Source of the DNA: Thermodesulfobacteriota bacterium
Lineage (GTDB): Bacteria; Desulfobacterota_D; UBA1144; Nemesobacterales; JAJCZQ01
DNA length: 64,000 nucleotides
Direction: 5' to 3'
NCBI GenBank assembly: GCA_965203965.1
Contig: CBDBDR010000017.1
Coordinates: forward strand, 278,440-342,439
How positions within the stretch are numbered: the stretch's first letter is position 1; every line of letters starts with the position of its first letter. The notes beneath the pieces are model-generated. The model made no database searches. It was not told where the DNA came from and saw nothing but the letters and a program-made list of their open reading frames with translations. Below are positions 9,780-64,000 of this stretch, piece by piece. Position numbers and translations under genes: made by a program.

Positions 9780-10132
9780 TGGTGGAGGCGCTGGGAATCG
9801 AACCCAGGTCCGCTAAAGAGCCTCACTTAGCTTCTACATGCTTATCCTGCTTATTAAATTTCACAAGGCAAATACCAACAGGCGGGTCTAGCCTTGCAAT
9901 CCCGGTTTTAATCTCGCTGCTTTACCAACCGAGCAAAGTAAATCAGCCAGCCCGTTTTTATTACGCCTCATCAAGAACCACGGGCATGATCCCTGAGAGA
10001 CGTCACAGCATTATTTATGCTGCGAGTGCATTAATTGGTTCGGCACTTATTGTGCGCAATCAGTTTTACGAGTTAATCAGCTCGACATGCAGCTTAAGTT
10101 GTCTCGTTTACCGTCGAAGCCAATACGCCCCC
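9780..10132 (-). ncRNA. ssrA: tmRNA (SsrA), ~353 nt
   Basis: 5' end GGGGGCGUAUUGGCUUCGACGG… and 3' tRNA-like end …GGGUUCGAUUCCCAGCGCCUCCACCA. An internal reading frame ends …NALAA-UAA (candidate tag ~AEPINALAA). It sits immediately downstream of smpB. Confidence 0.9.

Positions 10133-13324: not shown

Positions 13325-13346
<22 letters not shown>
12240..13346 (+). CDS. ispG: 4-hydroxy-3-methylbut-2-enyl diphosphate synthase (IspG/GcpE)
   Basis: …ISIGGVDVGGGAAVSVQSMT… plus a C-terminal [4Fe-4S] cysteine region (CPGCGR…GCVVNGPGE). Start chosen at the internal Met (MFRKS…); the ORF opens at 12171. Confidence 0.9.
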
Positions 13347-13401
<55 letters not shown>

Positions 13402-50615: not shown

Positions 50616-50814
50616 CTATGTTGAGTTTTTTGGAGGTAGTGGGCAGTGTTGCTCAACAAATTTTTGAACATTTTCAATAGATGCCGGTGTATTTCTGTTC
50701 TCTTTGTCTTCTTAAATTTGTTTGCCATTTTGTATTGTGGAGTGTCTAAGGATATTTAAGAATGTTTAAAGTAGTATTAAAAATGTCTAGTTTCTAAAAA
50801 CTACCCTGTCATTT

Positions 50815-50849
50815 CCTGACGGGGTGGTAAGAGAGAAACAACACAAGCA
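50815..50849 (+). repeat. 35-nt element copy 2 (cctgacggggtggtaagagagaaacaacacaagca)
   Basis: See copy 1. Both lie in a 590-bp gene-free region. Confidence 0.55.
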
Positions 50850-50868
50850 GAATATCTACAAATTGACA

Positions 50869-50923
50869 CTTTAAATGGGGTTTAAACGGCATTTAAACAG
50901 CATTTAAATATAGTTTAACTCAA
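50869..50923. repeat. Five tandem 11-bp-phased TTTAAA-core repeats (cTTTAAAtggg / gTTTAAAcggc / aTTTAAAcagc / aTTTAAAtata / gTTTAActcaa)
   Basis: Read directly from the sequence. Related to the array at 9580-9623. Confidence 0.6.
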
Positions 50924-51026
50924 TAGTTGATTTTTAAGTTTTTGATCTAAAATTTATAATAATATCAGTAAATAAAGAACATAAGTTATAGTTATTTATT
51001 CATTTTTACTTTCAAGCCATTGAGGT

Positions 51027-52574: not shown

Positions 52575-52722
52575 GCCCCGTTGTCAAGTATGGTAAATTG
52601 CCGAGATGATCTATGACGTTTCAGGTTCTAACAAAATATGGGTTCAGAAAAAATAATACAGTAATAAAGTTTCTACAAATTTTCTCTTGACACACGGTTA
52701 TTTGTGCTTAAATTCTGGAATA

Positions 52723-53310
52723 ATGCAAAAGAAACTCGGTGATATTGCTACTGTTCAAATGGGATTTCCCTTTCGTTCACGTATTGAACCAGACGAGGAT
52801 GGAAATGTCTCTATTATTCAAATGAGCAATTTAGGAGAAAATAGTTTGAAGGCTCATACGGATCTGCTCAAGGTTTACCTAAAGAATATATCTCATAAGC
52901 ACTTAGTGAAACAAAAAGATTTGATCTTTCGTTCAAGGGGAAAAACAATAAATGCAGTGATAATTGATAAAGAAATTGAGCGAGCAGTCGTAGCGGCACC
53001 GTTAATTAGAATAAGAGTTACGGAAAAGGACGTTATTCCGGAATATCTTCTCTGGTTCATGAATCAGCCATTATCTCAAGCATTTTTGCACGGCAGAGCC
53101 ACCGGAACTTCAATGCCTATGATCGGTAAGTCAACTCTTGAAGATCTGCGGATTACTATCCCTGATCTTGAAACTCAAAGGCAAATCGTAATACTTGCTC
53201 ATTTATCGGACAAAGAGCAAAAACTAATGAAACGGTTGGCTAAGGCAAATGGTAGTTTAGTTCAAAAAACTTTGAAACAGTTGGTAACAGATCCTAAGAA
53301 GTCTTATTAG
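52723..53310 (+). CDS. hsdS: Type I RM specificity subunit, half-size (single target-recognition domain plus conserved region)
   Basis: ~195 aa with one target-recognition domain and the conserved helical region …LETQRQIVILAHLSDKEQKLMKRL… It is immediately upstream of hsdM. Confidence 0.7.
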   Translation: MQKKLGDIATVQMGFPFRSRIEPDEDGNVSIIQMSNLGENSLKAHTDLLKVYLKNISHKHLVKQKDLIFRSRGKTINAVIIDKEIERAVVAAPLIRIRVTEKDVIPEYLLWFMNQPLSQAFLHGRATGTSMPMIGKSTLEDLRITIPDLETQRQIVILAHLSDKEQKLMKRLAKANGSLVQKTLKQLVTDPKKSY

Positions 53311-53322
53311 AGGAGCAGAGAA

Positions 53323-54837
53323 ATGACAAATGGGACAATAGATCAAAAAAACATAGACAATGCTGCATGGTCTGCCTGCAACACTTTTCGTGGAGTGATG
53401 GACGCGTCCGTTTACAAGGACTACATACTCGTGATGTTGTTTCTCAAATATGTTTCGGATGTTTGGAAGAGCCATTATGAGAAATACAAAAAGCAATACG
53501 GAGACCACAAAGAGCGCATCAACCGCCTTCTTAAAAATGAGCGGTTTGTTTTGCCTAAAGACAGCAGTTTTTACAACCTGTATGAGAATCGTTCTGCTTC
53601 AAATATCGGTGAACTTATAAACATTGCGTTGACCGCATTTGAAGACGAAAACAAAGAGAAACTGGAGGGTGTTTTCCGCAACATTGACTTCAATAGCGAA
53701 ACAAATTTCGGCAAAACAAAAGACCGCAATCGCCGTCTTAAAACACTACTTGAAGATTTGAACAAACCAGAGTTGGATATGAGTCCAGATAATGTTACAG
53801 AAGACATTATCGGCAATACATACATCTATCTGATAGAGCGTTTTGCGTCCGATGCTGGCAAAAAAGCGGGAGAGTTCTACACACCTCACAAGGTTTCGGA
53901 GTTGGTAGCAAAGTTATGCGACCCCAAGCCCGGAGCACGCATTTGCGACCCTACTTGTGGTTCTGGAGGGCTTCTAATTGAAGCCGCGCGCGAAGTGGGT
54001 GGCGATGATTACTCTCTTTGTGGGATGGAAGTCAACGGAGGTACTTGGGCGCTTTGTCGGATGAATATGTTCCTTCACGGGATGGATTCAGCACGAATTG
54101 AATGGTGCAATACATTAACAGCCCCCGGACTCGTGGAAACCGACCGCCTGATGAGGTTTGACAATATTGTCGCAAATCCACCTTTCTCGTTGGATAAGTG
54201 GGGAGCGGAAGAAGCGGGAAACGACATTTACAAGCGTTTTTGGCGAGGAATTCCTCCCAAGTCTAAGGGGGATTACGCTTTCATCAGTCACATGGTGGAG
54301 GCAGCTCTGGAAAAGAAAGGGCGCATTGCGGTTGTTGTCCCACATGGTGTTTTATTCAGGGGCGCGGCAGAGGGGCGTATCCGTCGCCATTTAATAGAAG
54401 AAAATCTGCTGGATGCCGTCATCGGCTTACCGGGTAATCTTTTTCCAACCACGTCCATTCCGGTTGCTATCTTGGTGTTTGACCGTTCACGCGAGACAGG
54501 TGGTGCAAATGAGAAACTCAAGGATGTGTTGTTCATTGATGCAAGCCGTGAGTATGAGTCCGGAAAAAATCAGAACAAGCTACTGGACAAGCATATAGAA
54601 AAGATCGTTGACACATATAAAAAGCGTAAAAGTGTTGACAAATATGCGCATTTGGCAAAACCAGAAGAGATTGAAGAAAACGATTTCAACCTGAACATCC
54701 CGCGTTATGTGGACACCTTTGAGGAAGAAGAGGAGATAGATATAGACGCGGTGCAGCGAGAAATAGATCAACTGGAAAAAGAACTGTCCAAAGTGCGGAT
54801 GGAGATGGCGAAAAAAATGAAGGAGATTAAAAGATGA
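53323..54837 (+). CDS. hsdM: Type I RM N6-adenine DNA methyltransferase subunit
   Basis: N-terminal HsdM domain, motif I (DPTCGSGGLL), motif IV (NPPF). Confidence 0.9.
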   Translation: MTNGTIDQKNIDNAAWSACNTFRGVMDASVYKDYILVMLFLKYVSDVWKSHYEKYKKQYGDHKERINRLLKNERFVLPKDSSFYNLYENRSASNIGELINIALTAFEDENKEKLEGVFRNIDFNSETNFGKTKDRNRRLKTLLEDLNKPELDMSPDNVTEDIIGNTYIYLIERFASDAGKKAGEFYTPHKVSELVAKLCDPKPGARICDPTCGSGGLLIEAAREVGGDDYSLCGMEVNGGTWALCRMNMFLHGMDSARIEWCNTLTAPGLVETDRLMRFDNIVANPPFSLDKWGAEEAGNDIYKRFWRGIPPKSKGDYAFISHMVEAALEKKGRIAVVVPHGVLFRGAAEGRIRRHLIEENLLDAVIGLPGNLFPTTSIPVAILVFDRSRETGGANEKLKDVLFIDASREYESGKNQNKLLDKHIEKIVDTYKKRKSVDKYAHLAKPEEIEENDFNLNIPRYVDTFEEEEEIDIDAVQREIDQLEKELSKVRMEMAKKMKEIKR

Positions 54838-55055
54838 GCAAGATGCCAACAAATAAACATCATCAAACATTTGAGGATGCTTGTCGCCGTACGGAAAACG
54901 GCGCCGAATTTTGGTCTGCACGCGAACTTTTGTCCATTCTCGATTATGGAAGTTGGGATAAATTCAAGGCAGTCATTCATAAGTCTATAAGTGCTTGTGA
55001 GAATTCGGGCATGGTTTCCTCAGACCATTTTTCCCAGATGGGAAAAATGGTCTGA
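54834..55055 (+). pseudogene. DinD-like (DNA-damage-inducible protein D family) N-terminal fragment, 73 aa
   Basis: …HHQTFEDACRRTENGAEFWSARELLSILDYGSWDKFKAVIHKSISACENSG… resembles DinD N-termini. ATGA overlap with the hsdM stop; truncated. Confidence 0.4.
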
Positions 55056-55175
55056 AGGGTTCGGGTCGGAGGTAATGGCTAAACAGGAGAGAAAGGAACA
55101 GGCATTGTTGAAAAGGATAAAAAGGGCATAAAATAGGTATTTTTTGCCTATATCTACAACGACATATACACAAAA

Positions 55176-55745
55176 TTGAATTTTATGTACACATTAAGCA
55201 AACATATACATAATTTTGAGAGCATTCACCCGTTCCCTGACGGCAATGGTCGCATTGGTCGCGTGCTGAACGTGCTGTATCTGACGCACAAGGGGCTTTT
55301 AGACGCTCCCATCCTTTATTTGAGCCGAGCGATCAACCGCACAAAGCCAGACTACTACCGCTTATTGCAAGCCGTGCGTGAAGAGGGCGCATGGGAAGAA
55401 TGGATCATCTACATACTGAGTGCCGTTACAGAAACGGCAAAATCAACCTTGCAACTTGTATCGGGTATTCGGGAACTGATGGCTGAACACAAAAAACTTA
55501 TACGAGATGAACTGCCGAAAATCTACTCTCAGGACTTGTTGAATAATCTGTTTCGCAACCCCTATACGCGTATTGACTACGTGGCGAAAGACCTAACGGT
55601 TGACCGCAGAACAGCACGCAAGTATCTCAAACAATTAACTGAAAAGGGGATTGTGGAGGAAGTAAAGGCGGGGAGGAACAACTACTACATAAACAAAAAA
55701 CTGGTTGACCTGTTTGTCAGTGTCTCGGTGGAAGGGGATCAGTGA
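55176..55745 (+). pseudogene. Fic-family protein lacking the N-terminal half (begins just before the HPFPDGNGRIGR motif)
   Basis: Canonical Fic motif HPFPDGNGRIGR at residues 18-29, followed by a C-terminal wHTH-like region. A functional Fic fold needs ~100 aa upstream of the motif. Confidence 0.55.
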
Positions 55746-57895
55746 TGAGTAGGAAAGGGGAAAAGGAACGAGCGTTGCCCGATGGGTGGCAGGAAGTGAG
55801 GCTGGGGGACATAATGGAATTCAAAAATGGATTGAATACAGAGAAAGGAAACTATGGTAAGGGTGTAAAATTTGTGAACGTAATGGATGTTTTCAAGTTT
55901 AACTATCTTTATGAACATAATGTTGTTGGCTCTGTTCAAGTTAGTGAAAAAAACAGAATTGAATATTCAGTTAAATATGGGGATATCTTGTTTAATAGGA
56001 CATCTGAAATACTTAATGAGATTGCTATGTCATCTGTATATCTCGATGAGAAAAAAATAATCTTTGGAGGTTTTGTTATTAGAGGACGCCAAAAAATTAC
56101 TGCTCTTACTCCTCGATTTTCTATTTGTTGTCTTCAATCCAATAAAGTACGAAAAGAATTAATAAGACGAGGGCAAGGTGCCGTCCGAGCGAACATTGGA
56201 CAAAAAGATCTAGCGAAAATTCCTGTTGTTATTCCACCGCTCCCCGAACAAAAAGCCATCACCTCTTTACTGGAAACATGGGACACGGCGATTGAGAAAA
56301 CTGAAGCATTGATTGAGGCAAAGGAAAAGCGGTTCAAGTGGTTGCTGAAAACACTCATCAGCAATCAGCAAGACAATCCTGAATGGCGGGAAGTGAGGTT
56401 GGGGGATGTTACGAAGGTTATTGTAGGCCAGTCTCCAAAAGGGATTTTCTATAATACAGAGGGTGAGGGCATGCCCTTCTATCAAGGTAAATCTGAATTT
56501 GGGAAAATCTACATTAACAATCCTAATATGTGGACTACTCAAACAACTAAAACGGCAGAGAAAGGCGATATTCTTATGTCCATTAGAGCTCCTGTTGGGT
56601 CAATTAACCGTACAAATAACAAAATTTGCATTGGCCGAGGGCTTGCTAGTATTAGGGTTCATAGCATCAAACGAACGTTCTTATTTTTTTACTTGCAGTT
56701 TATCAAAAGCCAAATAATAGGAAATGGTGGCTCTATATTCAATTCGATTACTAAGCGTCAAGTTGAACAAATTCCAATTCTTTGCCCCCCAGTTTCTGAA
56801 CAAAAAGCCATTGCTGCTGTACTAAACACGGTACAACGTGAAATTGATCTACTGGAACAACTCACCCAACAATACCGCACACAAAAGCGCGTGCTGATGC
56901 AGAGATTATTGACAGGAGAATGGAGGACAAAGATGAATCGTTATATTCTGAGAATGGGCACTTACGAGTGTCCTAAAACAGTAATTAAAAAAGAAAGATT
57001 TGAACAATTAAAGGAAGCGAGAAATATCTTGTCAAAAGCATTGGTTTTTGAGGGGAATTACGAGATTATAGTGCATAATTACCTTGAGTTGGAAAAAGAA
57101 TTGATGGGAATTACTATTGAAGATATTGGTAGAACTTATTATAGTTATGATGATTTCTTCAATTATACACTTTCTTCTAATATCAGAGTATCAAACCTTC
57201 TGAATTCGGCAAAATTTTACATTGATACACTTTCGCAAACTCTCGAGAACTGCTTTCAAAATGAGGAAGTTTCTCCTGATATAAAACAAATAATCAAAGA
57301 GGATGAGGGCAACTCGCTTCTTGAATTTGTTTATGAACTAAGGAACTATCTTCAGCATGTTGATTTGCCAGTGCATAACACCTTAATAAATAGAAGATGG
57401 ACAGATGACAATCTTATGGAATATTCCACGCATATCTTTTCTTCAAAGAAATATCTTTCAGAGGATGAAAAGTCAGAATCAATACTTAAAAAAATGGAAG
57501 AACAAAAAATAATGAAAGAAGAAGAAATAAACCTAAACCTTACCATTAGACACTATGTAGAATTCATCAGTAAAATGCATATTCAAACGAGATCTAAGAT
57601 AGAAAAAAGAGTTAATGAGGCAAGAGATTGCATAGAATCTACGATTAAGGAATATTTAGACGAACATAGGATTAAGGAAAAGGAATATTTAGATGAAGAT
57701 GGGAAGTTTATAGGTTTTTTACATGCTTTCCATTTCAACCATAGTGAAATAGAAGAGAAAATTCCTTTGTTTCTGGATTACGACGATGTTCGTCTTAATC
57801 TAATACGTAAGAACAACAAAGAACTGGTTAATCTACATAAACGATATGTTACAACACGAGTTGATTCAGTAAATAAGAAGGAAATATCTAAATAA
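55742..57895 (+). CDS. hsdS: Type I RM specificity subunit HsdS (two target-recognition domains, aa ~1-395) fused in-frame to a ~320-aa Lys/Glu-rich C-terminal domain with an Rx4H (HEPN-like) motif; a candidate Abi_2-like abortive-infection domain
   Basis: Conserved HsdS central and C-terminal regions (…YRTQKRVLMQRLLTGEWRTK). There is no stop where the downstream repeat copies of this region carry their TGA, and the frame continues into MNRYIL… The motif ELRNYLQH sits at 57341-57358. Confidence 0.7.
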   Translation: MMSRKGEKERALPDGWQEVRLGDIMEFKNGLNTEKGNYGKGVKFVNVMDVFKFNYLYEHNVVGSVQVSEKNRIEYSVKYGDILFNRTSEILNEIAMSSVYLDEKKIIFGGFVIRGRQKITALTPRFSICCLQSNKVRKELIRRGQGAVRANIGQKDLAKIPVVIPPLPEQKAITSLLETWDTAIEKTEALIEAKEKRFKWLLKTLISNQQDNPEWREVRLGDVTKVIVGQSPKGIFYNTEGEGMPFYQGKSEFGKIYINNPNMWTTQTTKTAEKGDILMSIRAPVGSINRTNNKICIGRGLASIRVHSIKRTFLFFYLQFIKSQIIGNGGSIFNSITKRQVEQIPILCPPVSEQKAIAAVLNTVQREIDLLEQLTQQYRTQKRVLMQRLLTGEWRTKMNRYILRMGTYECPKTVIKKERFEQLKEARNILSKALVFEGNYEIIVHNYLELEKELMGITIEDIGRTYYSYDDFFNYTLSSNIRVSNLLNSAKFYIDTLSQTLENCFQNEEVSPDIKQIIKEDEGNSLLEFVYELRNYLQHVDLPVHNTLINRRWTDDNLMEYSTHIFSSKKYLSEDEKSESILKKMEEQKIMKEEEINLNLTIRHYVEFISKMHIQTRSKIEKRVNEARDCIESTIKEYLDEHRIKEKEYLDEDGKFIGFLHAFHFNHSEIEEKIPLFLDYDDVRLNLIRKNNKELVNLHKRYVTTRVDSVNKKEISK

Positions 57896-58030
57896 TAAAT
57901 GACTTCATCTCAATTATTATAAGATTGAACAAAATTGTTTGATCTTATAAATTCTTGAGGTCTATGAAAAGCCTTGGAATTAACAAGACCACAGGCTACC
58001 GAATTGGCTCAACGGCTCAAAAAGAAATAA

Positions 58031-58355
58031 ACTTGCTCAAACAATTATCTGAACAATACCGCACTCAAAAACGCGGGCTGATGCAGAAGTTGCTGACTGG
58101 AGAATGGAGGGTAAAGATATGATTACAAAAATCACGATGAACAATGTTACCAGTTTTAAAGAGAAAACCAGATTCATCTTTAACCGCTTGGGTTATGAAT
58201 TTTCTAATGCGGTTCAAACGCCCATTAAAGGCAGAGTTAGCCCTTCTACGTAAGGTCAAAGTTCTGGTTGGATCAGTGCGTCTTCTTTCTGCCATTATGG
58301 GTTTTACCTTTGAGCTTCATCCAAGCCACAAAACGTGGTAATGTAGTATAATTTT
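58031..58355 (+). repeat. Direct repeat R1 core (325 bp): an hsdS 3'-end copy (…QYRTQKRGLMQKLLTGEWRVKI*) plus a 45-codon 5' stub of an AAA_15/RloA-like ATPase gene (MITKITMNNVTSFKEKTRFIF…)
   Basis: ~93% identical to 59816-60140. A further homologous stretch (58440-58700 vs 60230-60480) extends each copy to ~650 bp. Confidence 0.8.
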
Positions 58356-58794
58356 CATTTACTAATAGTATAGTTTTTTCTGTATAATAATTTTCAGCAA
58401 TTCAGTATAGAAATAACGTTTTCTACATGATGAAACAAAGTTTGATCATTTGGAATTATACTGTTCCATGATCAGGTCTATAAAGAGTTTTACAATGGGT
58501 GAAGCCATTCCTCAGACTCAGTCGGCGGAGTTGTATTGGCGGTTACGAGAGCCAAGCGGGCAAAACCACGCTGGCGTATCGTACGAAAATGTTCAATACA
58601 TTGAACAAAATTGTTTGATCTGATAAATTCTTGAGGTCTATGAAAAGCCTTGGAATTAACAAGACCACAGGCTACTGAACTGGCTCAACAGCTCAAAAAG
58701 AAATAGACTTGCTCAAACAATTAGCAGAACGATACCGCACTCAAAAGCGCGGGCTGATGCAGAAGTTGCTGACTGGGGAGTGGAGAGTGAAGAG

Positions 58795-59742
58795 ATGAGC
58801 ACATCTTTTAAAATATTAAGCATAGATGGTGGAGGAGTGCGAGGAATTCTTCCCGCCAAGATACTGAAGCTCATGGAAGCCGAGCTCGGCATAGACGTAC
58901 ATGAAACCTTTGATCTCATTGTTGGCACTAGCACTGGTAGTATCATAGCTGGGGCAATCGCCGTAAAGTACAAATTGGCTAAATTAGTAAGTGATTACAA
59001 TGAAAATGCTCCGAAAGTTTTCAAGAAAAGATGGAATTTCATGGGGCTTTACAGATCTAAATACAGTTCAGCCTTCCTTGAAAGTTTTCTTCGTAAAATA
59101 TTTGGTGAGGTTACATTGGGAGAAATAGAAAAACCGCTCATTCTTAATGCTACAAATATCAGCGATGGTAATCTTCATGTTTTCAAGTCATCGTATCAAA
59201 AAAAACAACGAGAGGGGGAAGAGGAGCAGGTTTATAACAGGGATGGAGGAGTACCTTTGTACAAAGCAACTCTAGCCTCTTGTTCGGCACCAATTTATTT
59301 TGATCCGGTGAAGATAATATTTGATCCGGTGGATAAAGAAGAAAAACTTATTTGTGACGGGGGTATTTGGGCTAATAATCCTTCCTTGGTTGGATACAGT
59401 GACGCTATCAGGAATTTCAAGAATGTTGGAACCGATAATGTCAAGATCTTGTCTTTGGGAACTGGACAAACCAAGCAAATTTACCAACCAGCAAAAGCAT
59501 GGGGATACTTAACGGGATGGAAACATACGAAATTGATAGACTTCTCCATATCATGTCAGACAGAGTTTCCTAAAAATGTTTTGGAACTTATTGATTTAGA
59601 TAAAATTCTCAGGATCAACCCTTCTATTGATAATTACGAGATTGACAATTACCAAAGCATCCCAAAGTTAATGGAACTGGCTAAAAAGGAATTCAATAGT
59701 AGCAGTGAAAAAATTTCAAATTTTCTTAACATAAGAAGATAG
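58795..59742 (+). CDS. Patatin-like phospholipase (PNPLA family)
   Basis: Oxyanion hole SIDGGGVRGI, nucleophile elbow GTSTG (GxSxG), catalytic Asp motif CDGGIWANNP. ~316 aa. The start codon (GTG) overlaps the last hsdS 3'-end copy (copy B). Confidence 0.8.
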   Translation: MSTSFKILSIDGGGVRGILPAKILKLMEAELGIDVHETFDLIVGTSTGSIIAGAIAVKYKLAKLVSDYNENAPKVFKKRWNFMGLYRSKYSSAFLESFLRKIFGEVTLGEIEKPLILNATNISDGNLHVFKSSYQKKQREGEEEQVYNRDGGVPLYKATLASCSAPIYFDPVKIIFDPVDKEEKLICDGGIWANNPSLVGYSDAIRNFKNVGTDNVKILSLGTGQTKQIYQPAKAWGYLTGWKHTKLIDFSISCQTEFPKNVLELIDLDKILRINPSIDNYEIDNYQSIPKLMELAKKEFNSSSEKISNFLNIRR

Positions 59743-59815
59743 GAGACAAAAATTACAGTTTACGAGGAAAAATTTGTTCTCTTTTCTGATAGGTATTCCT
59801 GTCAAAAAGAAATGG

Positions 59816-60140
59816 ACTTGCTCAAACAATTAGCAGAACGATACCGCACTCAAAAACGCGGTTTGATGCAGAGGTTGTTGACTGGAGAATGGAGGGTGAA
59901 GATATGATCACAAAGATCACGATGAACAACATCACCAGTTTTAAAGAGAAAAGCAGATTCATCTTTAACCGCTTGGGTTATGAATTTTCTAATGAGGTTC
60001 AAACGCCCATTAAAGGCAGAGTTAGCCCTTCTACGTAAGGTTAAAGTTCTGGTTAGATCAGTGCGTCTTCTTTCTGCCATTATGCGTCTTACCTTTGAGC
60101 TTCATCCAAGCCACAAAACGTGGTAATGTAGTATAATTTT
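59816..60140 (+). repeat. Direct repeat R2 core (325 bp), copy of R1: hsdS 3' end (…LLTGEWRVKI*) plus the ATPase 5' stub
   Basis: See R1. Together R1 and R2 bracket the patatin gene. Confidence 0.8.
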
Positions 60141-60408
60141 TTCCACCCAATATGGAGAAAAAACTGTATAGAAATTTTTACTGATTGTTGTATAAAAATA
60201 GAATTATAAGGCTGAATTTTCGGCATTATATTGCTCCATGATCAGGTCTATAAAGAGTTTTACAATGAGTGAAGCCATTCCTCAGACTCAGTCGGCGGAG
60301 TTGTATTGGCGGTTACGAAAGCCAAGCAGGCAAGACCACGCTGGCGTACCGTACGAAAATGTTCAGTACATTGAACAAAATTGTTTCATCTGATAAACTT
60401 TCACATCT

Positions 60409-60687
60409 ATGAAAAGCCTGGAATTAACAAGACCACAGGCTACCGAACTGGCTCAACGGCTCAAAAAGCCTTGCCGGTTTATTCAGTCCATATCGGGGGC
60501 GAAGCAGAAAAGAAAAGTCGCTTTGCTGATATTGGGTGAGGTGCAGAAGTTTCCACACTGGTCAGCGATTGTAAAATATCTTTGGGATGAAGATAGTCGC
60601 ATGAAAAGAATGGTGGCGGCAAAGTGCCTGTTTCGTTTCCCAGATTGGACGTTTTTTGCAAAATATTCAAAACTGCTCAGCAGTTGA
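60409..60687 (+). pseudogene. Degenerate copy of the DUF4143 AAA ATPase gene (61018-62223) with two large internal deletions; the Walker A region is lost
   Basis: N-terminus MKSLELTRPQATELAQRLKKPCRFIQSISGAKQ matches the intact gene, then jumps to …KRKVALLILGEVQKFPHW…SRMKRMV…FPDWTFFAKYSKLL. Confidence 0.6.
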
Positions 60688-60726
60688 TCGTTTCCTGTCA
60701 ACGCCTGCGGAACATTGGTTAAATTG

Positions 60727-60897
60727 ATGCCTGATTTTCTATTTGACGAAAAAAGCCTCTCCCAGATCCCAGCTTTACAGCAGTTGATCAATCCAGTGCA
60801 ACAATTGGTTTTTGGGATGAATGGAAGAAAGAAAAGGATGGACAAAGGAATAAAAGAATCTATTGAAACATTAAGAAAACAGAGTAAATCTCAATGA
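60727..60897 (+). pseudogene. Duplicated 5' fragment of hsdR (first ~21 codons, MPDFLFDEKSLSQIPALQQLI) followed by unrelated sequence
   Basis: Near-identical to the hsdR start at 62223 (MPDFLSDEKCLSQIPALQQLI). The preceding ~60 nt also match the 3' end of the intact ATPase gene. Confidence 0.5.
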
Positions 60898-60946
60898 AAA
60901 TAACACTAAAACAGGGGAAGCAAGCACTGCTTTTAAATAACAAAAA

Positions 60947-60986
60947 TGTTCAATACATTGAACATTTTTGTTCAATGTATTGAACA
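60947..60986. promoter_or_regulatory. Two tandem operator-like palindromes (TGTTCAAT-ac-ATTGAACA and TGTTCAAT-gt-ATTGAACA, centres 22 bp apart) 32 bp upstream of the ATPase gene
   Basis: Perfect 8-bp inverted arms. Single copies or remnants precede each ATPase 5' fragment (58595-58612, 60362-60379, partial at 57927-57945). Confidence 0.4.
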
Positions 60987-61017
60987 AAATTGTTCAGTCT
61001 GATAATCTTTTTAGGCG

Positions 61018-62223
61018 ATGAAAAGTCCGAAATTCATAAGACCTCAAGCCACCGAATTATTGCGACGACTCAAAGAGCCTCGCCGGTTTATTCAATCCAT
61101 ATCGGGGGCGAGGCAGATCGGCAAAACAACCCTTGCCCTACAAGTGGCAGAGCAAAGCCGATTGCCTTATCACTTTGCAAGTGCTGATAGGCCGACGCTT
61201 CGCGCCGGTGATGGATGGATCGTGTCGCAATGGAAGGAGGCGCGACATCTGGCGGAACAATCAAAAAGGAAAGGCGCTTTGCTGATATTGGATGAGGTGC
61301 ATAAGGTTCCACACTGGCCAGCGACTGTAAAAGGTCTTTGGGATGAAGATACTCGCATGAAAAGAATGGTGAAGGTGGTGCTGCTCGGTTCAGCACCGCT
61401 GTTGATCGGGCGAGGACTTACGGAAAGCCTCGCCGGGCGTTTTGAAACCGTGTATCTGCCACATTGGAGTTTTCCCGAGATGCGAGATGCCTTCGGATGG
61501 GATTTGCAACAATATCTTTTTTACGGTGCCTATCCGGGAGCCTCACCCTTCATAAAACAGCCGGCGCGCTGGTCGCGCTACATAAAGAACTCTCTTATAG
61601 AAACAACCATTTCCCGCGATGTGCTTTTATTTTCCCCTGTGGACAAACCGGCTTTGCTTAGGCAATTGTTCGAGATGGGTTGTTCCTATTCGGGGCAGGT
61701 ACTCTCTTACAGAAAACTTGCAGGACTGCTTCAGGATAAAGGTAACGTTACCACCCTTGCGCATTACCTTGACTTGCTCGCCGGAGTCGGCACGGTTGCC
61801 GGGTTGCAAAAATATGCGGGTAGCTTCGGGGCACGCCGGCGTTCCATACCCAAACTTCAAGTCTTCAACACTGCCCTGATCACCGCGCAATCTGGGATGA
61901 CCTGGCAGGAGGTGTTCAAAGATGGACGACTGCTGGGGCGGCTTACGGAGTCGGCCGTGGGAGCTCATCTGCTCAATGCAGCCACTGGCGGGGAGTGTGA
62001 ATTATTCTATTGGCGAGATAACAATCGCGAAGTAGATTTTGTTTTGCGCAGAGGAAAGAAGCTTGTTGCCATAGAAGTAAAAAGCGGTAAAATGCCTGTT
62101 TCGTTTCCCGGATTGGATGCTTTTTCCAAAATATTCAAAACTGCTCAGCAGTTGATTGTTGGTGAAGGCGGAATTCCCATTGATCGTTTCCTGTCAACAC
62201 CTGCGGAACATTGGTTAAATTGA
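61018..62223 (+). CDS. AAA+ ATPase of the AAA_14/DUF4143 family
   Basis: Walker A SGARQIGKTTLA, Walker B LLILDEVHK, C-terminal DUF4143-like region. Strongly GC-rich compared with its surroundings. Its stop overlaps the hsdR ATG. Confidence 0.8.
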   Translation: MKSPKFIRPQATELLRRLKEPRRFIQSISGARQIGKTTLALQVAEQSRLPYHFASADRPTLRAGDGWIVSQWKEARHLAEQSKRKGALLILDEVHKVPHWPATVKGLWDEDTRMKRMVKVVLLGSAPLLIGRGLTESLAGRFETVYLPHWSFPEMRDAFGWDLQQYLFYGAYPGASPFIKQPARWSRYIKNSLIETTISRDVLLFSPVDKPALLRQLFEMGCSYSGQVLSYRKLAGLLQDKGNVTTLAHYLDLLAGVGTVAGLQKYAGSFGARRRSIPKLQVFNTALITAQSGMTWQEVFKDGRLLGRLTESAVGAHLLNAATGGECELFYWRDNNREVDFVLRRGKKLVAIEVKSGKMPVSFPGLDAFSKIFKTAQQLIVGEGGIPIDRFLSTPAEHWLN

Positions 62224-64000
62224 TGCCTGATTTTCTATCTGACGAAAAATGCCTCTCCCAGATCCCAGCTTTACAGCAACTGATAAATCTGGGCTATGAG
62301 TATCTGCCACCTGAACAGGCGTTTCAGGAACGCAATAGCAAATACGGCAATGTTTTGCTGGAAAACATACTGCGAGACCAACTCAAAAAAATAAACCGCA
62401 TTAATTATAGAGGCAGAGAATACCTTTTCAGTGAGGAGAACATTCAGTCTGCCATTGAGAAGATCAAAAACATTCCATATGACGGTTTGATAAAAACAAA
62501 TGAAAAGATCTACGATCTTTTGACGCTTGGCACGTCGCTTAAGCAGACCATTGAGGGCGATTCCAAAAGTCACACACTTCGCTATATTGACTGGGAAAAT
62601 ACGAATGCAAATGTTTTTCACGCCACTGCGGAGTTTTCGGTTGAACGTTCCCGGAGTTCTGAAACTGTAAGACCGGACATTGTGCTGTTTGTAAACGGCA
62701 TTCCTCTTGTTGTGATTGAGTGCAAAACGTCCGGAGTTGCCGTGGATGAAGGCGTTTCTCAGATGATCCGCAATCAGGGAGAGGATCATATTCCTCGCCT
62801 TTTTACTTATGTGCAGTTGGTAATGGCTGTAAATAAGAATGAGGCAAAATACGCGACCGCCGGAACTTCAAAGAAATTCTGGAGCGTCTGGAAAGAGTTA
62901 GAAGATCACGAAGATGAAACAAAAACCATTGTGGATCAACCGCTTTCAGATGAGAACAAGAATGTTCTTTTTTCTTCCAATGAATTTGCTTATGCCCGTG
63001 CGCATTTTGATAAAATTGAGAGCCAAGGTGGACGTCTTGTTACGGAACAAGATAAAGCAGTTCATAGCCTGTGCCGTCCTGAGCGCCTGCTTGAGATCGT
63101 TTACGGGTTTACAATTTTTGATAGTAAAACAAAAAAAATTGCCAGATACCAACAGTTCTTTCTTGTTCGCTCGGCAATTAAAAACATCAAAACAAAAAAC
63201 AGTGAGGGTGTGAGAAAAGGTGGGATCGTGTGGCACACGCAAGGTTCTGGTAAATCCATAACAATGGTTATGCTCACGCGAGCCCTTGTGATGGATCCGG
63301 AACTGAAAAACACGCGGATCATTCTTGTTACAGACCGCAAAGATCTGGACGAACAACTCGGCAACACCTTTGCTGCTTGCGGTTTGAACAAAGAACGCGC
63401 CACTTCGGGACGTGATCTGGTCAAGCATATAAAACGCAAGACGGACATTATCACCACGTTGATAAACAAATTTGAAACGGCATCTGCTGCCGAAAAATAC
63501 GTAGATGATTCACCTGATATTATCGCTCTTGTGGACGAGAGCCACCGCACAAATTTCGGGGAATTGTCCGCAAATATGAGGAGGATGCTTCCAAAGGCAT
63601 GCTTTATAGGTTTTACCGGCACTCCGTTGCTAAAAAAAGAGAAAAACAGTTTTGCGCGCTTTGGGGAGTTGATTGAGCCGTCTTATCCGGTCAGAGCAGC
63701 CATAGATGACAAACAGGTTGTCCCTCTGATCTACGAGGGTCGGCATGTGGAGATAAAACAGGATAAAGAAGCCATTGATAAATGGTTTGCCCGTCATACT
63801 GAGGGGCTTTCCGATAAACAGAAAACTGATCTAAAGAAAAAATATTCACGTGCTGCAAAACTGAACAATTCCGATAGGGTCATCTATATGACGGCTTTTG
63901 ACATTAGCGAGCATTTTCGCGCCAATTGGAAAGAGACGGGAGAGATGGGATTTAAGGCTCAACTTGTGGCTCTGAACAAGGCAACTGCTCTTAAATATCA
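62223..64000 (+). CDS. hsdR: Type I restriction enzyme R subunit HsdR, N-terminal ~592 codons; continues beyond the window
   Basis: The reading frame is open to the window end. HsdR N-terminal nuclease region (…IVLFVNGIPLVVIECKTSG…) and SF2 helicase motifs (TQGSGKS, VDESHR). Absent from the ORF track because there is no stop in the window. Confidence 0.85.
   Translation, partial: MPDFLSDEKCLSQIPALQQLINLGYEYLPPEQAFQERNSKYGNVLLENILRDQLKKINRINYRGREYLFSEENIQSAIEKIKNIPYDGLIKTNEKIYDLLTLGTSLKQTIEGDSKSHTLRYIDWENTNANVFHATAEFSVERSRSSETVRPDIVLFVNGIPLVVIECKTSGVAVDEGVSQMIRNQGEDHIPRLFTYVQLVMAVNKNEAKYATAGTSKKFWSVWKELEDHEDETKTIVDQPLSDENKNVLFSSNEFAYARAHFDKIESQGGRLVTEQDKAVHSLCRPERLLEIVYGFTIFDSKTKKIARYQQFFLVRSAIKNIKTKNSEGVRKGGIVWHTQGSGKSITMVMLTRALVMDPELKNTRIILVTDRKDLDEQLGNTFAACGLNKERATSGRDLVKHIKRKTDIITTLINKFETASAAEKYVDDSPDIIALVDESHRTNFGELSANMRRMLPKACFIGFTGTPLLKKEKNSFARFGELIEPSYPVRAAIDDKQVVPLIYEGRHVEIKQDKEAIDKWFARHTEGLSDKQKTDLKKKYSRAAKLNNSDRVIYMTAFDISEHFRANWKETGEMGFKAQLVALNKATALKY

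Follow-up and report, generated by a model that had tools for sequence, protein, structure and literature searches.

A 64,000-nucleotide stretch of a Thermodesulfobacteriota bacterium (contig CBDBDR010000017.1, positions 278,440 to 342,439; hereafter the window, in whose own numbering all positions are given unless a locus is named) carries at 52687-64000 a Type I restriction-modification (RM) operon with other anti-phage genes nested inside, among which remnants of gene cassettes are stacked in tandem, each with its own copy of the 3′ end of the specificity gene hsdS. The explanation that accounts best for this locus, and which is judged likely, is that of a nested-cargo operon whose cassettes are exchanged by recombination and have left stacked remnants behind. 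It would be one operon of a Type I RM family that is horizontally mobile and runs from a half-size hsdS through hsdM, a first cargo position (slot 1), hsdS, a second cargo position (slot 2) and a DUF4143 ATPase gene to hsdR.

The nesting of defence genes in such operons is an arrangement already known, with PrrC in the EcoprrI locus and the rlo genes in the hsd loci of Campylobacter jejuni as examples. Moreover, it has become a means of discovery under the name of guilt-by-embedding (Payne et al., bioRxiv 10.1101/2024.01.29.577857). What is new here is the tail-carrying cassette array with its strain polymorphism, an orphaned effector of a cyclic-oligonucleotide-based anti-phage signalling system (CBASS) and an unannotated protein family, referred to as RNxxQH after its motif. 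All the named genes and fragments were found on the plus strand by means of the list of open reading frames (ORFs), the translations and hidden Markov model (HMM) scans with Pfam, PADLOC and NCBIfam. A first-pass annotation of the window, made from the letters alone, had described defence cargo within a Type I RM operon and had placed a half-size hsdS, hsdM, dinD and fic fragments, a patatin gene, a DUF4143 gene and hsdR on one strand, all of which these scans bore out. Still intact are the RM genes, the RNxxQH gene fused to hsdS, an orphan patatin of the CapV type and an ATPase of PADLOC family PDC-S01; besides the patatin gene, the region from 57.9 to 60.9 kb consists of fragments and pseudogene debris only.

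The array of hsdS tails

The window contains four copies of the hsdS 3′ end (~105 nt; nhmmer profile, E-values from 7e−24 to 2e−29), of which the three extra tails lie at 58012-58118, 58688-58794 and 59797-59903, all as direct repeats. These three additional occurrences had been recognized in the first-pass annotation, together with a different cargo behind each of them. The latter part did not stand, since the two ATPase-like stubs of the array are copies of one segment (58017-58316 vs. 59802-60101, 93% identical), and the kinds of cargo that follow the repeats are therefore two and not three.

Read along the plus strand, the array begins with remnant 1 (57907-58011; repeat families D1 and D5), in which the palindrome region from upstream of DUF4143 and the opening ~19 codons of that gene run into an hsdS tail at ...GCTCAAAAAG|AAATAAAC... 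(alignment A1). The tail itself, copy R1 (58012-58118; nhmmer E-value of 1e−28), is followed by copy 1 of the ATPase-like N-terminal stub (58119-58253; ORF list and sequence), whose start overlaps the R1 stop and which is also found in the sister-strain contig L001, and then by copy 1 of a fragment of another P-loop ATPase with the Walker A motif GYESQAGKTTLAY (58438-58582; repeat D4 and reading frame). Remnant 2 (58583-58687), with the DUF4143 palindrome TGTTCAATACATTGAACA and DUF4143 5′ codons, leads into tail copy R2 (58688-58794; alignment A1 and blastn against L001), behind which the intact patatin gene occupies 58795-59742. A further hsdS fragment, R3 (59745-59903), begins 3 nt past the patatin stop and holds the end of the second target-recognition domain (TRD2) along with the 3′ conserved region. 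It is followed by copy 2 of the stub (59904-60038; repeat D2, 93% identical to copy 1) and by copy 2 of the Walker A fragment with palindrome remnant 3 (60208-60398; repeats D4 and D5), with 92% identity between 58438-58627 and 60208-60397 (repeat D4). Finally, an internally deleted copy of DUF4143 and the first 22 codons of hsdR form a pseudogene pair at 60409-60793 (repeats D6-D9; partial PADLOC match to PDC-S01), with 79-95% identity to pieces of 60969-62289. Neither this pair nor the palindrome and ~19 DUF4143 codons that precede two of the extra tails had been mentioned in the first-pass annotation.

Both joins of the DUF4143 5′ end to the hsdS 3′ end share one breakpoint, ...GCTCAAAAAG|AAATA..., at a CAAAAAG microhomology. 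In the JGI metagenomes scanned, the exact junction had no match, and a degenerate pattern of the hsdS tail was found in 4 contigs with one copy each. Furthermore, L001 has five hsdS tails, and each of the 20 other loci with this hsdS tail has exactly one. In the array, each cargo start overlaps or abuts the stop codon of the hsdS tail, and a Shine-Dalgarno-like GGAG(G/A), which falls in the codons for GEWR of the conserved HsdS tail (..LLTGEWR), is found 6-9 nt before each cargo ATG. In its ~25 codons, the stub resembles the N-terminus of ATPases in general; it matched no family in Pfam, PADLOC or PHROGs, and no parent gene was found in any fetched locus; its earlier label of RloA-like is unverified. 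Antisense to the stub module, ORFs of 76 codons are present on the minus strand at 58065-58295 and 59850-60080. The former gave a weak PHROG match to head morphogenesis (E-value of 3e−4) and its copy none, and the match is probably noise.

Sister strains and cargo of related loci

The sister-strain contigs L001 (ENA ERZ25068762), reached by means of the C-terminal 320 aa of the hsdS fusion described below, and L098 come from one metagenome assembly. Between L001 and the window, identity is 99% over the flanking housekeeping genes (dS of 0.02-0.05) and 95.7% from the half-size hsdS to the fic fragment. Divergence from L001 is a mosaic, with per-gene nucleotide identities as low as 0.89 in the RNxxQH gene and as high as 0.99 in the patatin gene and the flanks, and with unalignable TRDs of hsdS; neither of these TRDs has a nucleotide match between window and L001, unlike the central and 3′ conserved regions of the gene. 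Moreover, L001 has an additional cassette of three genes, for a coiled-coil protein of 280 aa, a KAP NTPase of 456 aa and a further protein of 114 aa, which sits exactly between two hsdS tails. Tail R2 of the window combines the upstream flank of R2 of L001 with the downstream flank of R3 of L001, as would be expected of the product of recombination between direct repeats.

Of the loci with relatives of the DUF4143 gene, ~14 lie in operons homologous to that of the window, in which identity to its genes is 74-80% for hsdM and 61-72% for hsdR. In one of these, L030, the order is half-size hsdS, hsdM, a short DinD gene, a full-length Fic gene, hsdS, an RNxxQH gene (41% identity), a Fic/DOC gene, DUF4143 and hsdR, which is the architecture of the window minus the debris. 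Elsewhere, slot 2 is occupied by Avs2 (L015 and L025), a ThsB-like TIR protein (L027), PIN-TPR-GreAB-C proteins (L019), DUF3800 with PDC-S04 (L016) or CBASS (L092 and L093), in L030 by the RNxxQH and Fic/DOC genes just named, and it is empty in L023, L029 and L094, the last of them a JGI contig in which the hsdS stop overlaps the hsdR start. Because homologous loci hold different cargo or none, the interval from hsdS to DUF4143 is a variable slot for defence cargo, in agreement with the published finding that Type I RM operons often have defence genes nested in them. In the syntenic hsdM-hsdR intervals the cargo thus varies and the gene order is not invariant, and sister strains differ by cassettes, TRDs and a Fic deletion; the recombination-driven variable cargo site put forward in the first-pass annotation is upheld by these comparisons.

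The association of cargo with the hsdS tail can also be seen outside this slot. L091 belongs to another organism represented in the same assembly, and two insertions interrupt the Fic gene of its homologous operon (L091 3816-8533). The first insertion, in Fic codon ~45, is a cassette of patatin, CD-NTase and SEC-C genes with ~40 nt of hsdS tail, and the second is a further CD-NTase gene behind a patatin 3′ remnant. Since this ectopic CBASS cassette keeps its hsdS tail, cassettes travel with the tail.

Proposed cassette exchange and alternative explanations

In slot 2, the first cargo gene normally starts at the hsdS stop or a few bases from it, and in the proposed mechanism its expression would be coupled to that of hsdS. 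Strains and species would exchange cargo through homologous recombination, for which the conserved hsdS 3′ region could serve as the left arm and the 5′ ends of DUF4143 or hsdR as the right arm. In the lineage of the window, imprecise joins mediated by microhomology may have stacked imported cassettes in tandem, each with the hsdS tail of its donor, and the resulting direct repeats of ~100 nt would have favoured further loss, as of the KAP cassette, and duplication, as of the stub module on either side of the patatin gene. The anatomy of the locus, its junctions, the differences between strains and the changing cargo of relatives are seen directly in the sequences; this recombination, the translational coupling and any activity of the cargo are proposed from them. 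It is possible, though rather doubtful, that the hsdS 3′ end acts as a portable cargo adaptor, combining an integrase-free homology arm with a signal for ribosome binding and coupling, and that the RNxxQH protein is an uncharacterised nuclease effector. If so, Type I RM operons would accumulate and shuffle arrays of cassettes by general recombination, somewhat like integrons, and the window, L001 and the ectopic insertion in L091 would be snapshots of adaptor-driven cassette exchange.

Like the embedded-defence Type I operons already described, the window has foreign defence genes between the hsd genes, co-oriented and strain-variable, and PADLOC PDC families derived from embedding match its DUF4143 ATPase, its DinD fragment and Fic/DOC-like neighbours in related loci. 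It differs from them in its stacked cassettes, each with its own hsdS 3′ end, in the chimeric joints of DUF4143 5′ and hsdS 3′ ends and in the truncation of most cargo. No description of tail-carrying hsdS arrays was found in the literature, which is weak evidence, as the searches were not aimed at arrays. Embedding is an accepted heuristic for discovery, but the entry and exit of embedded cargo are rarely visible. This locus preserves the scars, namely donor hsdS tails accompanying cargo, joins at microhomology and a cassette-sized indel bounded by tails, which together make a testable model of cargo turnover.

Several partial hsdS copies in one locus, TRDs that differ between sister strains and an in-frame fusion of HsdS to an effector in one strain would also be expected of a programmed phase-variable Type I system, in which silent partial hsdS copies switch the specificity or the fused or coupled effector. 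Phase-variable hsdS invertons and shufflons, such as SpnD39III, have been surveyed (PMC7672463), and the window resembles them in having more than one hsdS-derived segment in a Type I locus. However, all its hsdS copies are direct, with no inverted hsdS repeats in a repeat search of the window, and no invertase or other recombinase domain was found in the ORFs scanned with HMMs between 52.7 and 64 kb. In addition, the copies are conserved tails without TRDs, except for a short remnant of the TRD2 end in R3, so that recombination among them cannot make new specificities and only deletes or duplicates cargo; the TRD differences resemble allele replacement, and silent donor TRDs are not present. 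Programmed switching is therefore considered very improbable. As for the possibility that the tandem array is false and arose when the assembly strung together strain variants co-existing in a metagenome, at least three strain variants of the locus do occur in one metagenome assembly, and short-read contigs break inside the repeats. On the other hand, repeats and cargo follow one another in the same order in L001, an independent contig that also has the chimeric junctions in common with the window, and the copies have diverged by 7-25% from one another. Furthermore, two independent short-read contigs from other runs, both ending inside a repeat, are 100% identical to 60713-62229 and 60922-62229, the longer match spanning the join of the pseudo-hsdR remnant, a unique spacer and the intact DUF4143 gene. 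An assembly artefact of this kind appears highly unlikely.

The genes might instead form a functional multi-gene defence system, with an HsdS-HEPN fusion, patatin and one or more ATPases acting together with the RM complex. The genes are indeed co-oriented and tightly packed, with intact patatin and DUF4143 genes, and the patatin is only 4 residues away from that of L001. Nevertheless, relatives have the RNxxQH gene, the patatin gene and DUF4143 independently of one another, sister strain L001 lacks the fusion, the DNA between the genes consists of fragments, and the array of L001 has an extra, unrelated cassette in its middle. Such a joint system is thus scarcely credible. The combination of HEPN fusion, patatin and ATPase had been suggested in the first-pass annotation to be a system without a name; the parts turn out to be unrelated cassette remnants, and the ATPase is already listed in PADLOC, as candidate PDC-S01.

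Some observations weigh against the nested-cargo operon with recombination-driven exchange. Only the lineage of the window and L001 showed such tail arrays, and the stacking may have happened there once, by accident, without being a general mode. Any ongoing rearrangement within the population would have to be read out of no more than three strain contigs. Scans for promoters and terminators performed no better than chance, the RM system might suffer from the 717-aa fusion of its HsdS, and the C-terminal half of hsdR lies beyond the window edge, with 592 residues seen. Moreover, the Fic fragment has a dN/dS (ratio of nonsynonymous to synonymous divergence) of 0.16 compared to L001, which is low for a presumed pseudogene, with ~19 substitutions only.

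Genes and regulatory elements of the locus

The patatin-like phospholipase (58795-59742, plus strand) is intact and of the CapV type. It reached 206.2 bits for the NCBIfam CBASS_lipase model NF041079 (cutoff of 200) and an E-value of 2.5e−81 for the PADLOC CBASS effector PDLC00758, and it retains the GGGxRG, GxSxG and DGG motifs. Its closest relatives outside L001 (65-75% identity) are the first genes of cassettes with patatin, SMODS CD-NTase and SEC-C genes, and in L092 and L093 cassettes of patatin, CD-NTase and SEC-C genes directly follow hsdS in the same operon family. The passing of the cutoff, the motifs and the relatives at the head of CBASS operons are shared with Type I CBASS with CapV. 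In contrast, CD-NTase and SEC-C homologues were absent from the 64-kb window (tblastn with three CD-NTases and one SEC-C protein from L091-L093), and no CD-NTase or SEC-C gene was found in L001 either. The locus is therefore not a CBASS system, and the patatin is an orphan CBASS effector, because the cyclase and SEC-C genes are absent and an hsdS fragment follows its stop, as it also does in L001. It is 99.2% identical to that of L001 at the nucleotide level, with 4 residues differing. Caution is advised, as automated annotation would label this patatin a CBASS effector despite the absent cyclase.

An ORF of 717 aa (55742-57895, plus strand) encodes a complete HsdS with two TRDs in residues 1-397, and the other 320 aa hold the motif RNYLQH. 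The second part is a HEPN-like gene of the RNxxQH family (56933-57895, plus strand; ~300 aa), which a 2-nt deletion, from ACTCAAAGATGA in L001 to ACAAAGATGA in the window, brings into frame with hsdS. In L001, hsdS (392 aa) and the RNxxQH gene (325 aa) are separate and overlap at ATGA, and the RNxxQH gene is also separate in L002 and L030. The hsdS-HEPN fusion proposed from the letters alone is thus present as an in-frame ORF, but it is a strain-specific indel, since L001 keeps two genes and the window differs by the 2-nt deletion. In annotation it would pass as a designed architecture. The RNxxQH gene stands alone after hsdS in L002 and is found outside RM loci in L003-L007; compared to L001, it showed a dN of 0.11, a dS of 0.16 and a dN/dS of 0.68.

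A word-based search with the C-terminal 320 aa gave three homologues only, while a profile search gave 2744 cluster representatives of ~300 aa. In 106 aligned sequences of the family, R136 and H141 are the only invariant columns, and N137 and Q140 are at least 90% conserved. The HEPN motif Rx4-6H, which HEPN-domain ribonuclease toxins and the RNxxQH family have in common, is thereby present (R136 and H141). The protein of the window had no match in the Pfam, PADLOC or PHROG models or among the PDB sequences (including profile searches against the latter), and 2 of the 106 relatives weakly matched HEPN_LA2681. A first AlphaFold2 model, from an input of 4 sequences, had a predicted local distance difference test (pLDDT) score of 56 and was discarded; that from the 106-sequence alignment had a pLDDT of 93 and a predicted template modelling score of 0.90, and gave no significant Foldseek match in PDB or BFVD. 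The identity of the family as HEPN, for which the invariant Rx4H motif is the only basis, is plausible but not established. RNxxQH is thus a family of ~2,700 clusters with no Pfam model and a confident fold model that has no significant structural match. It and the PDC-S01 ATPase, with its putative palindrome regulation, are reasonable candidates for defence screens.

The AAA_14-DUF4143 ATPase gene (61018-62223, plus strand) is intact and contains the Pfam domains AAA_14 and DUF4143, with a PADLOC match to PDC-S01 (PDLC04791; E-value of 7.5e−162, positions 2-394 of 395); PADLOC PDC families are candidates defined by embedding in RM operons, not by experiment. As initially annotated, the gene is GC-rich (G+C content of 0.50 vs. 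0.40 for the window) and its stop overlaps the hsdR start, the TGA and ATG sharing one base at 62223. Its relatives with 67-81% identity are found in metagenome-assembled genomes (MAGs) of several phyla, many with sponge-associated names (Poriferihabitaceae, Porifericomitaceae), as well as in Nitrospirales and Latescibacterota, and their neighbours are many different genes or none. Two palindromes, TGTTCAATACATTGAACA and TGTTCAATGTATTGAACA, lie upstream of the gene (60940-61007, strand not assigned) and are a likely operator. The palindrome TGTTCAATAYATTGAACA has 4 matches in the window vs. 0.2 expected, and in 22 loci it is kept upstream of DUF4143 homologues or altered on both arms to TACTCAATAYACTGAGTA. 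This suggests a putative operator that may co-evolve with its binding protein. In L011-L032, one to five tandem copies of the palindrome are present in the 130 nt before the DUF4143 start, with arms that differ between clades (TGTTCAAT..ATTGAACA vs. TACTCAAT..ACTGAGTA).

Upstream of DUF4143 in the Poriferihabitaceae MAG L011, an orphan 60-nt remnant of an hsdS tail (L011 8899-8958) was observed together with a Fic fragment, and hsdM, hsdS and hsdR were not detected within 10 kb, which suggests that this ATPase left an RM operon along with its neighbours. In Latescibacterota, ORFs of 148 aa lie directly upstream of DUF4143 (L019 9484-9930, L021 9469-9915 and L027 9478-9924). That of L019, the only one scanned with HMMs, matched PADLOC PDC-M50A (E-value of 6e−37). 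The 148-aa ORF and DUF4143 could form a two-gene unit, of which the window lacks the 148-aa ORF.

Slot 1 contains two fragments on the plus strand. The first of them (54834-55055) comprises 73 codons of the N-terminus of a DinD/Bro-N gene like PDC-S13 (NCBIfam DinD, positions 2-73 of 288; PADLOC PDC-S13, positions 1-73 of 281); it is likewise cut short in L001 and L098, while full-length genes of 264-281 aa are found in L091 and L093. The second (55176-55745) is the 3′ part of a Fic gene of the SoFic type (positions 187-358 of 361). The Fic motif HxFx(D/E)GNGRxxR (seen as HPFPDGNGR) and the winged-helix C-terminal domain are retained, and a complete Fic fold (Fic_N and Fic core) was not found. 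This gene is intact in strain L098 (366 aa), compared to which the window and L001 lack 590 nt, with a junction overlap of 17 nt.

The operon is headed by the half-size hsdS (52687-53310, plus strand) with a single TRD (Pfam Methylase_S, E-value of 5e−14; PADLOC PDLC03199, positions 3-190 of 208), which has a dN/dS of 0.17 compared to L001. Homologues with 49-59% identity precede hsdM in L016, L022, L023, L025-L027 and L030, pointing to a conserved half-size hsdS at the head of the operon across the family. It is followed on the same strand by the methyltransferase gene hsdM (53323-54837), with HsdM_N and N6_Mtase domains (E-value of 3e−100), a PADLOC MTase_I match (E-value of 7e−130), 77-80% identity to the hsdM of related loci, a dS of 0.09 and a dN/dS of 0.21 compared to L001. 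An exact look-up did not find the contig carrying the hsdM of the window, though the hsdM sequence is present in the protein collection. The full-length hsdS (55742-56932, plus strand), which accounts for codons 1-397 of the 717-aa ORF, has two TRDs and two conserved regions; Methylase_S matched it twice, and the PADLOC Specificity_I models cover residues 12-399. At the end of the window, the first 592 codons of hsdR (62223-64000, plus strand), which continues past it, contain the HSDR_N, SWI2_SNF2 and ResIII domains (PADLOC REase_I, E-value of 9e−141); hsdR relatives have 1060-1076 aa.

Beside the RM locus, a 517-aa gene with Schlafen/AlbA_2 and HATPase_c_4 domains is present between rsmE and cobA-hemD in L001 (2247-4041, corresponding to 50789-50930 of the window) and absent from the window and L098. 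It showed a weak PADLOC similarity to Argonaute-associated proteins and is a second defence-like insertion polymorphism. Elsewhere in the window, and unrelated to the operon, a tmRNA (9780-10132, with the tag AEPINALAA) and a tRNA-Met (13325-13401) are encoded on the minus strand.

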